Of a DNA stretch of 40,935 nucleotides, positions 30,001 to 36,000 are shown one piece after another. A program made the position numbers. This DNA is from an uncultured bacterium. GTDB lineage: Bacteria > Gemmatimonadota > Gemmatimonadetes > Gemmatimonadales > Gemmatimonadaceae. The first letter of the stretch is position 1. Each line of letters begins with the position of its first letter. The stretch is from the NCBI GenBank assembly GCA_963978095.1, contig CAXBQP010000029.1, positions 1 through 40,935 on the forward strand. Reading direction: 5' to 3'.

Positions 30001-33000
30001 ATGAGGGGCCGAAGCTCGCACCACCCAAATGGGTGATCTGTCGCTGGTTGGACCCGTCGGCATTCATCACGTACAGATCCATCTTGTTCGGTCGGATCAT
30101 GTTCTGCTTGAGCAGATCGCGGTACTGCGACAGTTCGGTGCTGTCCGTCGGGTGGTACGCGCGGTACACGATCTGCTTGCCATCCGGGGACCACCAAGGA
30201 CCGCCGTCGTAGCCCGGCGTCGTGGTGAGCTGCTTCACGTCCGTGCCGTCGACATTCATGGTGTAGATGTCGAGATCCCCGCCCTTGAGCGACGTGAAGA
30301 CGATCCGTCTGCCATCCGGCGAGAGCACCCCTTCGGCGGTGTATACGCCGTAGTTGGTGAGGCGCTTGAGCCCCGAGCCGTCGCGGTTGACCGTGTAGAT
30401 GTCATAGGGATCGATCCCCCACACATAGCCCTTGGACGGATCCGGCACCGGCGGGCAGGCGCTGTCCGCCATGTGCGTCGACCCGAAAAAGAGCCGCTTG
30501 CCGTCCGGGAGGAACCAGCCGCAGGTGGTCTTGCCGGCGTTCGGCGACACGCGCGTACGCGCGGTGCCGTCGACCTTCATGACGTACTGCAGGTCGCACT
30601 GATGCGCTTGCCCGGGAATCTGCGCCTGGTAGGTGATCCACTGGCCGTCGCGCGAGAAATACGCCTCGGCGTTGCTCCCGCCGAAGGTGAGCTGGCGGAT
30701 ATTGTGCAGATGCGATGTTTCCCCCGCATCCGCTGGTCGGGCCACCGGCTTGGTCGGTGCGGCGGTCGGTGCGACGGGTGCCGTGGAAAGCGGTATCGGG
30801 AGTGGAGCCTTGGCCGCCGGGCGGCCTTGGGCTCCAGCGCCGGCCGTGGCCACCGCGACGAGGAGCGCGGTGGACCGGACGCATGTTGGGAGATTCATGA
30901 GAGTGGGCTAGTGTTGCTTGGGACGACCAGCGCCGGGGGCCGGAGCGGCCGCAGCCGCGAGGGCGAGCAGCTCTTTCGTACTCTTGCCGCGTCGCAAGAG
31001 TTCCAGCGCCTTCTGCAGCTGCGGGTCATCATGGAGATCACGGCGCTTGGCCGTGCTGTCGCCCCACGCGAGCGTGGCGATCTTGCCGTCGAGCAGCCGG
31101 TCGATGTACTTCACGCCGGCATCGAACTCCTTGCGGTCCACCGTGACGCCGCGCTTGACGAGGCGCGCGTAGAACTCATCGCGCATGGCCGGGGTGATCA
31201 CGAAATCCGGCTTCACCTGCTTGCTCATCTCGAACGAGTAGTCGTACAGCGCGAGGTACGTGTCCTGCTGCTTGGAGAGCATGGCGCGCGCCAGCTTCTG
31301 CTCGGCGGTCGTGAAGGTGTCGTACGGGACGATCACGTCCGGCGTGATCGCCCCACCGCCGTACACCACGCGCCCACCGTCACTCTTGTACTTCGGGCGG
31401 TTCTGGCGCACGGCTTCGGTCTCGAGGGAATCCGGCTTCACCTCCACGAGCTGGCCGTCATCCGTGAGCTTGCGTTCCTTCTGGATACTGCGCCCGCTCG
31501 GCGTGTACCACTTGGCGGTCGTGAGCTTGATGGCGTAGCCGCCGTCGAGCCGGTACATGGACTGCACGAGTCCCTTGCCGAACGAGGTGGTGCCGACGAC
31601 GAGCGCGCGATCATGATCCTGCAACGCGCCCGCGACGATCTCGGAGGCCGAGGCCGAGTAGCCGTCGGTGAGGACGACGAGCGGAATCTTCGGAGCGATC
31701 GGCGTCATGTCCGTCACATGCACCTGCGGCGGCTCGCCGCGCCCGCGCACGCTGAGGATCTCCTTCCCCTTCTCGACGAACAGATTGGTCATCGTGTCGG
31801 CCTGCTCCAGGAACCCGCCGGGGTTCCCGCGCAAGTCGAGTACGAGGCTCGTCGCGCCTTCGGCGACGAGGCGCTTGAGATTGTCCGTGACTTCCTTGGC
31901 CGCGGTCTCGCTGAAGCCCTGGACCGGGATGTAGGCGGTGGTGCCGTCGAGCATGATGGCGTAGGGCACGGCCGGAATGCGGATGACGCGCCGCGTGAAG
32001 GTCACCGCGAACGGCTCCGTGGTGCCCGGCCGCACGAACGTCGCGCCGACCTTGGTGCCCGGTTCCCCCTTCAACCGTCCGGAGACCATCTCGATCTTCC
32101 AAGTCGCCGTGATGCGGGCGGTGTCGATCTTGACGATCCGGTCGCCGACGCGAATCCCCGCTTCGTCGGCCGGCGTATGCGGGAACACCTTGGCGATGAC
32201 GATCGTCCCTTCCTGCTGCTCGATCTGCATGCCGACGCCGGCATAGAACCCGCCCGTCGTCTGGTTGAACGCCTCCAACTGCTTGGGCGAATAGATCTCG
32301 GCGTAGGGATCCTTGAGCTCGGCCACGAGCCCGCGGGCGGCCTTCTCGTAGAGCGAGCCGATGTCGACCGAGTCGACATACCGGTCGCTGACGATGGCCA
32401 TGACCTGTTCGAACAGGCGCACACCACTCTGCGCACCGCGCTCCTGGAACACGAACGCGCCCGCGATGAGGGGGATGAACGCGAGCCCGATCAGGGCTGC
32501 CTTGGGAAGTCTGCGCATCGAGATCCGAGTCACTCGTAAGAGAAGAAAGGAGAATACCTAGTCCGCGCGCCCGTCGCCACGGCGAGTTTCGTGCCATGCG
32601 TGGAGACGACGCATGATCGAACCAGTTCAACTCTATACGGCACAACGGGATAGATCGTTCAGGCGGCCTTGTGACCAAGGCGATATCGCACGATCCAGTC
32701 CTTGCCGGCTTGCTCGATGACGGCCTCGCGCACGACCCCTGACGTCACGAGCATCTCGTGGGCGGGCTGCAGGACGCGTTGGAGGTGGGACGGGAATCGC
32801 TGCACCAGGGGGAGTTGCTCGGCGAGTTGCTCGAGGCCGATGCGCCAGGTCGTGTGTCCCTCCGCGCGCGCCAGCTCCAGCAAGCGGTAGAGGCGACGGG
32901 CGACGGGGCTGTTGAGCGCCCAATACTGCGACGACGAGAGGGCGATGCTCCACCGCGCGGCGATGTTGGCGCGGAGCGGCGCGGCGATCGTCACGCGTGC

Positions 33001-36000
33001 GTCTCCGGGCTCGTTGTTCGTGAGCAGCGGAAAGAGTCCGAGTTGGTCGCGGTCCGTGAGCCGACGGCGATCGATCTGCACGAGGGCCAGTATCGCCAAC
33101 GGCCCCGAGACGTGCGGGCCGTCGGCTCCTTCGCGGTAGCATGCCGAGGATTCGAGCAGGGTCCGTTCGAGCCGATTGAGCGCGGAACGGAGTTGCTCGT
33201 AGGTTCGACCATCGACGCGCCGCCCCATGGCCCGCAGGAACGCATGCAGCGTGAAGGTGACCGTCCCATCGGCGGGCGCGCCGGCGTCGTGATAGCGGCG
33301 CATCAACTCGACATACACGTCCTGGTCGAACGTACCCGGCAGTCGCTCTCCGGGTGCCGGCAGGACGCGCCAGCGACCGCCCGCGGGCGGGGACCAGCTG
33401 ATCACGGCCTCCTCGGCCGAGTCGCTGAGCCGAAAGATGGGGAGCGCCTCAAGGGAGCGATCGAGCACGATGGTGCGCGAGGGCTGCTTGCGGCGCGTGG
33501 CCATCAGGCGCGGGGAGGCAAGCCGCGGCGCGTCGACCGCGCGCGCGGCCGGCGGTGATCGGGTTGCGGATTCATCGCAGCTCCTCACGGCCGAGCGCGG
33601 CGCGCACCGCTTCGCGGATGGCGATGATCACGGCGTCGCGCGCCGCAGGCGAGTCGTCGCGGACGTTGAGCTCGATGCCGTCCGCGACCGGAAGCCGGCG
33701 CCAGCTGACGGGTGCGTCGTCATCGTGCGCCACGGCGCGATCACTGCCGGCGCCGAGTGCCGGGGCGAGCGACTGCGCGACGCGTCGCTCGAGCTGATCG
33801 CCGGTGACGTCCTGCATCTCCGCCTTGATGGCGTCGAGCGTTTGCCCTTCGCGCTGACGGATCTTGATGGCAAGCAACTGCAGCAGATGCCGATAGTGAT
33901 ACGTGGCGGCCGTGCCTTTGCCTTCGGGATGATCGAGCAGCCCTGCCGCAACATAGAAGCGGACGGCGCGGGCACTCGGTGTGGCTCGTGCGGAGGCGTT
34001 GGTGGGGCGCATGCCGGCGGCATCGACGAGCGAGGTCGCATGCGAGGCGAGTCCCCGGGCGTTCCATGGAGCGTGGCGCGCGTGGGCGCGCAGAAGTGCG
34101 ACGGAAGACTCAGCCATTCGGATACAATAACTCCGTCGGGGCGAAACTTCGAGAAAGGGGCGGGCCGGGGCGGAGGCGGCCGACGGGGGCTGGGATTGGA
34201 GACAACGGGGGGTACGCGATGATTCGCGCACCCCCCGTTCTCCCGGACGGCCGAGGCCGTGGGAGCGAACTCCGGTTACTTCTTGCTCTTGGCCTTGGCG
34301 GCCTTCTTCACGACTTTCACGACCTTCTTCGCGGGCTTGGCCGCCTTCTTTGCGGCCTTGACCGGCTTTTTGGCGACTTTGACGCTCTTCTTGGCGGGCT
34401 TGGCGCTCTTCTTGGCTGCCTTGACCGGCTTCTTGGCGGCGGCCTTCGCAGGCTTCTTGGCCGGTGCCTTGGCCTTCGCCTTGGCCTTGGCCTTCGCCGG
34501 CGCGGCCTTGGTGGGTTTCACCGCCTTTTTCACCGCCTTCTTTGCCGCCTTGGCGGGCTTCTTCGCCGGTGCCTTGGCCGGTGCCTTGGCCGGTGCCTTG
34601 GCCGGTGCCTTGGCCGGCGTTTTCGGGGCCGGGGCTGGTGCCGGAGTGGCGGCAGGCGCGGCAGGCGCGGCCGTCACGGGGGCCGCAGTCTCGGAGGCCG
34701 GCTTGCGGCCGCGCTTCCGCGGGGCGCTCAGCCCACCGCCGAACAGATCCGAGTCGTCGTCGTCGTCCATGACGCCAGCGTCGGGAGCGAGTTCGCCCGA
34801 GGCGCTCTCGTCGTCGTCCTCATCCGAGTCCTCGGTGCTGTCCCACAGCGAGTCGCTCTGGTCCTTGTTGATCGCCCAGCCGCCGTCCTCGTCCTCTTCG
34901 TCGTCGTAGGGAATTCCGCCGCCGCCGTATCCGCCGAGTTCCTCGCCGTCGTCGTCGCCGTAGCCGCCAGCGGCCATTGCCTCGCCGAAACTCATGTCCT
35001 GCCTCCTGTCACAACGTTCAATGAAAGATGGACGCCGTGGTCCACCGCTGAATACGGAGATCGCGCACAGTCGTCACCGCGTTGTGGAACGCAGCTGCCC
35101 GCTGAGCCACAGAGTATATGACACGGGTCGTCCGCACAAGGTTCGTCCGGCGCGCCCCTAATGGTGCGTGGTCCTGGCGAGTACGCCGTCCGGGAGATGG
35201 TGGTCCGCCGGGGTCGCATCGCCGGCGTGCTGGTCGCGGCTCCCGCGCCGCTTGAGCCAGATCGTGAAATCGTCCAGCAGTGAATACACGACCGGCACCA
35301 CGAACAGCGTGAGCAACGTACTGGTGATCAGGCCGCCGATCACGGCGTGTGCCATCGGGGCCCGTTGTTCGGCGCCTTCCCCGATTGCGAAGGCGAGCGG
35401 GAGCATGCCGAAGATCATGGCTACCGTGGTCATGATGATCGGACGGAGGCGGATGCGTCCGGACGCGAGGATCGCCTGGAGGCGATCCTCCCCTTCCTCA
35501 CGCCGCTGGTTCACGAAATCGATCAACAGGATGCCGTTCTTGGTCACGAGTCCCATGAGCATGATGATGCCGATCATGCTCATCACGTTGATGGTGCCCT
35601 TGGTGACCAGCAGGGCGAGCATGACGCCCAGGAAGCTGAGCGGCAGCGCGAGCATGATGGCCAGCGGCTGCAGGAACGACCCGAACAGCGATGCGAGGAT
35701 CAGGTAGATGAAGATCACGGCGAGCAGCAGCGCTTCGCCGACGTATCGCTTGGTGTCGTTCAGGTCCTGGACGCTGCCGGTGAAGACGGTGCGGTAGCCG
35801 GGCGGCAGCACCAGCGAATCGATGGCGGCCTTGGCGCGGTCGGCCACGTCGCCGATGGGCGTGTTCGGCAGCACCTGTGCATTGATGCGGATCTGCCGTT
35901 CCAGCGCGCGGCGCTCGATCTGTTGCGGACCGATGCCGGCCTTGATGTCGGCGACCTGACTGAGCATGACGCCGGCCGGGAGGCCGGTGCGGCCGTCGAG

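Follow-up and report, generated by a model that had tools for sequence, protein, structure and literature searches.

A plasmid-derived Rep protein resident in the chromosomes of Gemmatimonadaceae, a candidate clamp-docking accessory of replication

Described Rep-type proteins and the chromosomal rep gene

Plasmid initiators residing on bacterial main chromosomes are usually taken as relics. The RPA-family Reps of Rubrobacter, Deinococcus and Thermus (pTT27) and of a group of sister plasmids (L209-L217) are 370-620 aa long and have a helical domain at the C-terminus; they are accompanied by 6-9 iterons, often by an adjacent parA, and lack a clamp motif. TrfA of RK2, likewise a double winged-helix protein, is plasmid-borne with iterons and binds the clamp through a QLSLF motif N-terminal to WH1, a binding required for replisome assembly (PMC8034659, PMC4980987). 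RctB of Vibrio chromosome 2 has additional domains 1 and 4 and drives its own replicon. On the main chromosome of the archaeon Sulfolobus, the tandem winged-helix, plasmid-Rep-like protein WhiP adjoins oriC3 and is required for it (PMC3607249). Tus (PMC6549158) is described as a plasmid replication gene domesticated within a clade, with fixed context, congruent tree, occasional loss and gain of function.

The gene analysed here lies in a window of 40,935 nt (contig CAXBQP010000029.1) from an uncultured member of the Gemmatimonadaceae. The chromosomal rep gene (32659..33504, minus strand) encodes 281 aa comprising WH1 and WH2 only, and its GC3 of 0.84 is similar to that of its neighbours (0.78-0.89). 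With the plasmid RPA-family Reps it has the WH1-WH2 core and core motifs in common at 25-37% identity, but it is shorter, has no origin and carries a clamp-type motif. This motif lies in a WH1 loop, unlike that of TrfA, and was apparently gained independently. In contrast to RctB, the gene sits on the chromosome governed by DnaA; in contrast to WhiP, it has no detectable origin. Tus differs in fold and is a terminator protein with known Ter sites.

The product scored 69.8 bits against the PF10134 (RPA family) profile, whose gathering cut-off is 27. PF07042 (TrfA) was not matched, a PDB sequence search returned no match and an NCBIfam search assigned no family. The DnaA_N profile was also matched in 10 of the 27 plasmid RPA-family Reps scanned. 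A single-sequence fold reached a pLDDT of 40.8; the alignment-based model (pLDDT 88.1, pTM 0.87) has the double winged-helix fold of iteron-type Rep initiators. The RctB/RepE-type fold reported by the survey was recovered: the best Foldseek match was RctB domains 2-3 (E 4.8e-8; earlier 5e-9), followed by RepE, and structural alignment (VIA-align) gave Z 14.9 with pi (2nra; rmsd 3.5, 220 residues aligned) and Z 12.8 with RctB (rmsd 5.9, 240 aligned). RctB, RepE and pi are thus the best structural matches, yet only 9-16% identical. The most conserved parts of the protein are its two helix-turn-helix units, that of WH1 (modelled at residues 86-114; 33163..33249, minus strand) with mean conservation of 0.90 over residues 84-117 versus 0.74 across the whole protein, and that of WH2 (residues 224-255; 32740..32835, minus strand) with 0.86. 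The modelled WH2 recognition helix begins PSHLQRV, and residues 232-248 are largely invariant among homologs. The protein therefore probably binds DNA through its two winged helices.

Descent, genomic context and natural losses

The survey's view of a single-copy core gene that marks the family is confirmed on a larger sample. Of 151 family genomes, 144 had PF10134 matches above the cut-off, among them 107 of the 109 of high quality, and 74 of 77 genera were represented; a single match was seen in 137 genomes and two in 7. Across the phylum, profile A1 found the gene in 67 of 69 family genomes (in one as a contig-end fragment) and in 0 of 231 genomes from 11 other families; the corresponding PF10134 counts were 66/69 and 0/231. 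The family and phylum tallies of presence, copy number, dnaA distance and DciA include the unpublished genomes G007, G033, G034 and G134, and that of DciA also G197, G227 and G301; none of the other results depends on these genomes.

Identity to the Rep of the window was 54-89% in 57 other genomes, and mean identities were 65% for Rep, 55% for CtpA and 60-66% for DnaA. The gene is inherited vertically under purifying selection: dN/dS was 0.02-0.31 in 45 of 46 within-genus pairs, with dS near saturation in many of them, and in FastTree analysis 15 of 16 multi-member genera formed clades, the remaining one being without resolution. All 58 chromosomal Reps fell into one clade (SH-like support 100, FastTree only), and their sister relation (support 90) was flagged as a long-branch join. 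Monophyly, agreement with host taxonomy, fixed context, single copy and purifying selection were all found, as for Tus. The closest relatives are true iteron-plasmid Reps encoded on parA-iteron-rep plasmid modules. One clade, vertical descent, purifying selection and these relatives together bear out the proposed domestication from a plasmid Rep. Moreover, the family Reps (269-301 aa) terminate just past WH2, while 72 of 78 outgroup Reps have at least 330 aa; the chromosomal form has lost the C-terminal domain(s) that its nearest initiator relatives possess and has gained the clamp-motif loop.

The conserved downstream neighbour is a ctpA-type S41 protease gene (30908..32533, minus strand), as the survey had observed; it follows rep in 56 of 58 loci, and the other two break off 419-456 nt past the rep stop codon. 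The rep-ctpA spacer (32534..32658, minus strand) contains no iterons. In relatives it carries GGAAC-N16/17-CGTA, a promoter-like motif of ECF type spotted by eye and without a count, and ctpA appears to have a promoter of its own. Scanning the window for sigma-70 promoters gave no match. The usual upstream neighbour is a MerR-type helix-turn-helix gene (33572..34117, minus strand), separated from rep in many relatives by a short-chain dehydrogenase gene. No replication gene is found among the immediate neighbours.

The gene has been cleanly lost in two near-complete genomes (G017 and G221), where it is dispensable; the MerR-type gene and ctpA persist there, and in G017 neither DnaA nor oriC is visibly changed. 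Four further genomes without a match (G023, G080, G088, G123) are incomplete or fragmented and were excluded from the loss count. The rep-ctpA association seems to reflect conserved gene order instead of functional pairing. A role outside replication, for instance one tied to ctpA or envelope genes, with the clamp-type motif being structural or serving another partner, would agree with the adjacency of ctpA and with a score of only 0.58 for the predicted complex with DnaN; since ctpA seemingly has its own promoter and is retained without rep, and the motif agrees with the clamp consensus at each of the three key residues, this reading is very unlikely.

Position near dnaA and the search for an origin

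The finding that rep shares a contig with dnaA was extended to 45 genomes; in 43 of them rep is found downstream of dnaA and is transcribed from the other strand. The survey had described the distance as varying (73 to 680 kb), but the variation is not loose: among these same-contig pairs, which favour short distances, the median is 85 kb, 39 of 45 fall within 55-133 kb and 680 kb is an outlier. The position is non-random and origin-proximal. No location on a plasmid or chromid with partition genes of its own was found; the gene lies on the dnaA contig among housekeeping neighbours.

As the survey had noted, no iterons are found nearby: arrays were absent from 31 of 31 chromosomal rep loci and from a whole genome of 2.98 Mb (91% complete), while the same search detected them in 4/4 named plasmids and 7/8 sister loci. 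The only repeat arrays near rep arise from the gene of an acidic, Ala/Lys-repeat protein (34276..34995, minus strand) and are coding repeats with a period that is a multiple of 3. Six loci of the family's own secondary-replicon Reps also showed no arrays, so within the family the iteron test is not airtight. The sister plasmid iteron, of the GGTGCCGCTCAGGCAAGAA type, was rejected as the binding site of the chromosomal Rep, since its matrix gave 4 genome matches versus 6 in the reversed control and was not above chance upstream of rep either. An origin-clustered, AT-rich palindrome was also rejected, as it persists in both rep-less genomes; there it is kept upstream of an NrtR-type gene, which assigns it to another protein. 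The palindrome copy that lies within mnmE is patchy and carries no information on this point.

DnaA-type oriC features are present in 20 of 20 rep-bearing genomes, and oriC is alike with and without rep. Replacement of the helicase loader was rejected because 67 of 69 family genomes have DciA. The idea that rep stands in for a damaged DnaA was rejected too: in the suspect lineage, where DnaA matched profile positions 1-342 only, the protein is full-length and has linker insertions. A trans-acting initiator for chromids was likewise rejected, as the secondary replicons in G039, G099, G103 and G043 each have Reps of 590-680 aa from a distant clade.

A persisting initiator role, either at a second or reserve origin lacking classical iterons or by co-initiation at oriC in the manner of WhiP, would find support in the intact fold, in TrfA working with winged helices and a clamp motif, in the constant proximity to the origin and in the array-less secondary-replicon Reps. 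However, besides the missing arrays, the GC-skew minimum of one genome (G041; ~1.893 Mb) lies 44 kb from rep, closer to parAB and dnaA, with no switch at rep, although this skew is weak. Given the absence of an origin, the shortened protein, the unchanged DnaA oriC, the retention of DciA and the two clean losses, the initiator role assumed by the survey is not supported as the present one and is doubtful; the alternative it raised, of a DNA-binding protein put to a new use, is the better fit. Relative to the survey, the loss of the C-terminus, the acquisition of the clamp motif, the natural losses of the gene and its fixed location near the origin are new.

Clamp motif and a possible accessory role

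A QLGLF beta-clamp-type motif (codons 154-158; 33031..33045, minus strand) lies in a loop joining two strands of WH1 (residues ~146-167; 33004..33069, minus strand), which in alignment A2 exceeds its counterpart in plasmid Reps by ~11 residues. Residues 151-160 have a pLDDT of 51 in the model, and the loop is probably flexible. Q154, L157 and F158 are conserved in 121 of 121 homologs, and Q[LFI]x[LF]F occurs in 58/58 diverse chromosomal copies and 0/78 outgroup Reps; the motif is thus conserved and exposed, as in beta-clamp partners. The predicted Rep-DnaN complex scored 0.58 (best of 3 controls 0.00), a score that covers the pair and gives no interface; the runs share at least 62% of contacts, with partner pLDDT of at least 82. 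Of 157 solved pairs 116 passed the mark, as did 2 of 215 mismatched ones, and passing pairs scoring 0.60 or less comprise 18 solved and both mismatched ones, so the prediction lends weak support. It may echo solved clamp-peptide complexes, and together with the motif it suggests that the chromosomal Rep may dock on DnaN.

With a probability of roughly one half, the chromosomal Rep would be an accessory of chromosome replication that binds DNA, docks on the clamp and is not essential. An RPA-family plasmid Rep would have been captured once by the family ancestor in an origin-proximal chromosome block, losing its iteron origin and C-terminal domain(s) and gaining the clamp-binding loop; it would hold DNA via both winged helices and dock on DnaN via QLxLF. 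It may help to recruit or retain clamps when replisomes assemble or restart, in the way TrfA does at oriV, or it may modulate clamp access for DnaA, which itself carries a clamp-type motif (Q[MI]D[LF][FL]) in 26/26 genomes of the order and 0/5 outside. More tentatively, the order may regulate DnaA without Hda via this motif, and the family's plasmid-derived, DNA-bound clamp ligand may gate that step or seed replisome assembly.

The clamp motif would equally suit a transcription factor coupled to replication, or a nucleoid organiser, for which clamps left on new DNA would time gene expression and specific sites would be bound in the way that Rep dimers bind their operators. The frozen recognition helices and dispensability agree with this; Rep dimers are natural repressors (PMC8034659), and the C protein of phage Mu is reported to employ the clamp in transcription. 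However, no conserved operator emerged from the 60-nt upstream regions of 51 rep genes, only promoter-like bias (CTTGC in 19/51, most simply a -35 element), and the palindrome and sister-iteron scans yielded no regulon or site, which makes this reading rather unlikely. Chromosomal incompatibility, with the shortened Rep binding and blocking iterons of related plasmids, is highly improbable. The start of the WH2 helix (SHLQRV) resembles SH[IL][KR]RT of the sister plasmids, truncation would suit a dominant negative and two peptide patterns found no sister Reps in GTDB genomes; yet 95% presence, one fixed locus and purifying selection are unlike defence genes, no PADLOC defence-system model matched and the sister plasmids are known from metagenomes alone.

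Summarizing, this chromosomal rep is held as tightly as DnaA throughout a large soil and freshwater family and has been visibly rebuilt, its origin and tail lost and a clamp motif gained. It offers a family marker, natural loss lineages and three residues testable with DnaN, and so an entry to replication control in a phylum where such control seems unstudied; a literature search (few subscription papers, no bioRxiv supplements) found no description of such a chromosomal Rep. If the accessory reading is true, the conversion of a plasmid initiator into a clamp-docking replication regulator would be an undescribed route to bacterial cell-cycle control factors.

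Distribution, descent and setting of rep

The rep gene (32659-33504, minus strand) is an intact open reading frame encoding 281 aa, with codon use like that of neighbouring genes in the window, and its product scores 69.8 bits against PF10134 in a profile search. PF10134 was above cut-off in 144 of 151 Gemmatimonadaceae genomes, 137 of them with one match. In a phylum sample, rep was present in 67/69 family genomes by a family profile (66/69 by Pfam) and by either in none of 231 genomes from 11 other families; these tallies take in a few unpublished genomes. The survey's finding of a near-universal, single-copy gene that marks the family was thus borne out. 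The family name rests on the survey and on the source labels of matches, of which one at 88% reads Opitutaceae.

The 58 rep copies compared, sampled across the family, group in a single clade (SH-like 100, FastTree), in which 15 of the 16 genera with at least two members are themselves clades and one is unresolved. Of 46 within-genus pairs, 45 had a dN/dS ratio of 0.02-0.31; dS was often close to saturation. Identity averaged 65% for rep and 55% for the initial part of CtpA, and DnaA of the window's genome is 60-66% identical to that of 12 relatives. As claimed earlier, ctpA adjoins rep, lying 3' of it in 56/58 loci; in most relatives the spacer holds, by eye, a promoter-like GGAAC-N16/17-CGTA motif of ECF type before ctpA. 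Many relatives also have between the two genes a small conserved gene (~60-85 aa, starting MATKL; e.g. L138:7750-7992), absent from the window and without Pfam or PADLOC match. The distance between rep and dnaA, described as varying from 73 to 680 kb, proved less variable. Of the 45 genomes with both genes on one contig, 43 have rep on the strand opposite to dnaA and downstream of it; the median distance is 85 kb. The rep-dnaA block of G041 is collinear with the window's contig, with C35 and with C3, which holds dnaA.

Nearby, 34276-34995 (minus strand) encodes a protein without Pfam match, with an acidic N-terminal half, an Ala/Lys/Pro repeat tail and a histone-H1-like make-up, found upstream of merR in several relatives. 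At 19113-21646 (minus strand), beside a D-Ala-D-Ala dipeptidase gene, two genes of the D-Ala-D-Ala ligase type lie side by side, and one of them is fused to a SET domain.

Plasmid relatives

The rep model, built from a 62-row alignment (pLDDT 88.1), matches RctB domains 2-3 (E 4.8e-8), RepE and pi (Z 14.9, rmsd 3.5, 220 residues), in agreement with the fold proposed before. The best plasmid matches, among 72 records, are Rubrobacter, Deinococcus and Thermus Reps at 25-30%. The nearest tree branch, joined with support 90 but marked as a possible long-branch effect, consists of metagenomic proteins, for which nine loci (L209-L217) were fetched and eight examined for repeats. Arrays of 21-23 bp repeats precede rep in seven of the eight, the other having only 217 nt upstream, and ParA-type genes stand in front of rep in both loci tested. 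Therefore, the donor kind of the chromosomal gene is an ordinary iteron plasmid, and the claimed plasmid derivation is supported by these relatives and by the single chromosomal clade.

The nine loci are undescribed high-GC parA-iteron-rep plasmid modules with a common GCAAG iteron core and share GAAGTTGTT repeats downstream; L215 holds another RPA gene, which has a 21-bp array of its own. Their Reps were not found in GTDB genomes with the two patterns searched. On the secondary replicons of the family itself the Reps are of another kind, 590-680 aa long: a distinct RPA-like clade whose origin type is so far undescribed, one member adjoining parA-parB with palindromic repeats. A role of rep as an anti-plasmid factor is highly improbable.

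Initiation and the DnaA origin

No iteron array was detected in 31 chromosomal rep loci or in the genome's own 2.98 Mb assembly by scans that recovered 4/4 named plasmid arrays, in line with the earlier remark. However, none of six secondary-replicon Rep loci from the family (L133, L134, L135, L179-L181) has a visible array either. DnaA is above cut-off in 127/151 family genomes and is in fact full-length in a seemingly short-DnaA lineage; DciA is retained. The dnaA-dnaN spacer contains DnaA-box cores, CTA-type trio runs and an AT-rich tract, and a loose trio test, with the trio defined after PMC8287927, was positive in 20/20 rep-bearing, 1/1 rep-less and 5/5 sister-family genomes. The cumulative GC skew minimum of G041, ~1.893 Mb, lies between rep (1.849) and dnaA (1.922), beside gidA-parAB, named from their translations. 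Two near-complete genomes, G017 (96%) and G221 (98%), lack rep at the syntenic site and elsewhere: merR abuts ctpA in G017, and a phospholipase D gene separates them in G221. Both have rep-bearing congeners. The G017 genome is small (2.5 Mb), and in the 20 kb fetched from G221 (L175, on G221:C9) GC is only 49%, where relatives have 65-70%.

The missing arrays, intact DnaA origin features, retained DciA and natural losses indicate that rep is probably not the initiator, and this part of the survey's finding is not supported. The alternative it left, a repurposed DNA-binding protein, fits better. Conservation in rep is highest in the two helix-turn-helix units (0.90 and 0.86 against 0.74 overall), so that DNA binding is probably kept. 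A back-up or co-initiator is unlikely.

A lost tail, a gained clamp-type motif and the proposed role of rep

Family rep proteins measure 269-301 aa, against at least 330 aa in 72 of 78 outgroup proteins. The chromosomal form stops just after the second winged helix, WH2; in relatives a helical domain follows. Ten of 27 scanned relatives also match DnaA domain I, unlike the nearest branch. A loop in the first winged helix, WH1, is ~11 residues longer in chromosomal rep, is modelled with low confidence and bears QLGLF (residues 154-158). Q154, L157 and F158 are kept in 121/121 close homologs, and 58/58 diverse copies have Q[LFI]x[LF]F, which occurs nowhere in overlapping sets of 35 and 78 outgroup Reps. 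In TrfA, QLSLF binds the beta clamp and is required for replisome assembly (PMC8034659 and PMC4980987).

The predicted complex of rep with the genome's own DnaN (the clamp) scored 0.58, graded weak by the tool, against 0.00 for the best control; the mark was reached by 116/157 solved and 2/215 mismatched pairs, and of these 18 solved pairs and both mismatched ones scored 0.60 or less. Agreement between runs was at least 62% of contacts, partner pLDDT was 82 or higher, no interface was given, and the prediction may echo solved clamp-peptide complexes. DnaA itself bears Q[MI]D[LF][FL], a motif of the clamp type, at the linker start directly following domain I in 26/26 genomes of the order (own dnaA, L119:1829-3214 on C3; L031-L042, L109-L113, L120-L125, L173) and in 0/5 genomes of families outside it. 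Through this motif, on which a literature search found nothing, DnaA may itself dock on the clamp in place of Hda, and the motif is a pointer to a role of rep at the clamp. The family and its sister family also have a long protein in which either one or two DnaA-type ATPase domains are present (e.g. L114-L118).

We give roughly even odds (about 0.5) to rep being a non-essential replication accessory that would hold DNA through WH1-WH2 and dock its gained loop on DnaN, where it would recruit clamps, hold them or compete for them. A clamp-coupled regulator, which the clamp-type motif also fits, is conceivable but doubtful, and a role unrelated to replication is very improbable.

Four studies have RNA-library contigs over the rep orthologue of G260, whose ATG is at 3853 of L149; two of the contigs stop at 3851 and 3854. 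A leaderless transcript is thereby weakly hinted at, since the evidence consists of assembled contigs and DNA carry-over is possible; the spacing in many of 51 rep genes, with TTGC ~36 nt before the ATG and a T-rich element 7-10 nt before it, agrees with such a transcript. No DNA target was found with a matrix from 42 sister iterons (4 genome matches against 6 in the reversed control) or in an origin-clustered palindrome. The palindrome was ruled out because it persists upstream of an NrtR-type gene in both rep-less genomes. In the window this Nudix winged-helix regulator lies at 17946-18650 (plus strand), and it was found in 2/2 family and 0/3 sister-family genomes tested.

Domestication of plasmid replication genes is already known, RctB being one case. 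Tus (PMC6549158) and WhiP (PMC3607249) are others. A rep of this kind is undescribed in the literature searched, and term searches found no mention of the group in two preprints on replicons and Rep phylogeny. The reading of rep as a domesticated accessory of chromosome replication, which would act at the clamp, is open to a clear test.
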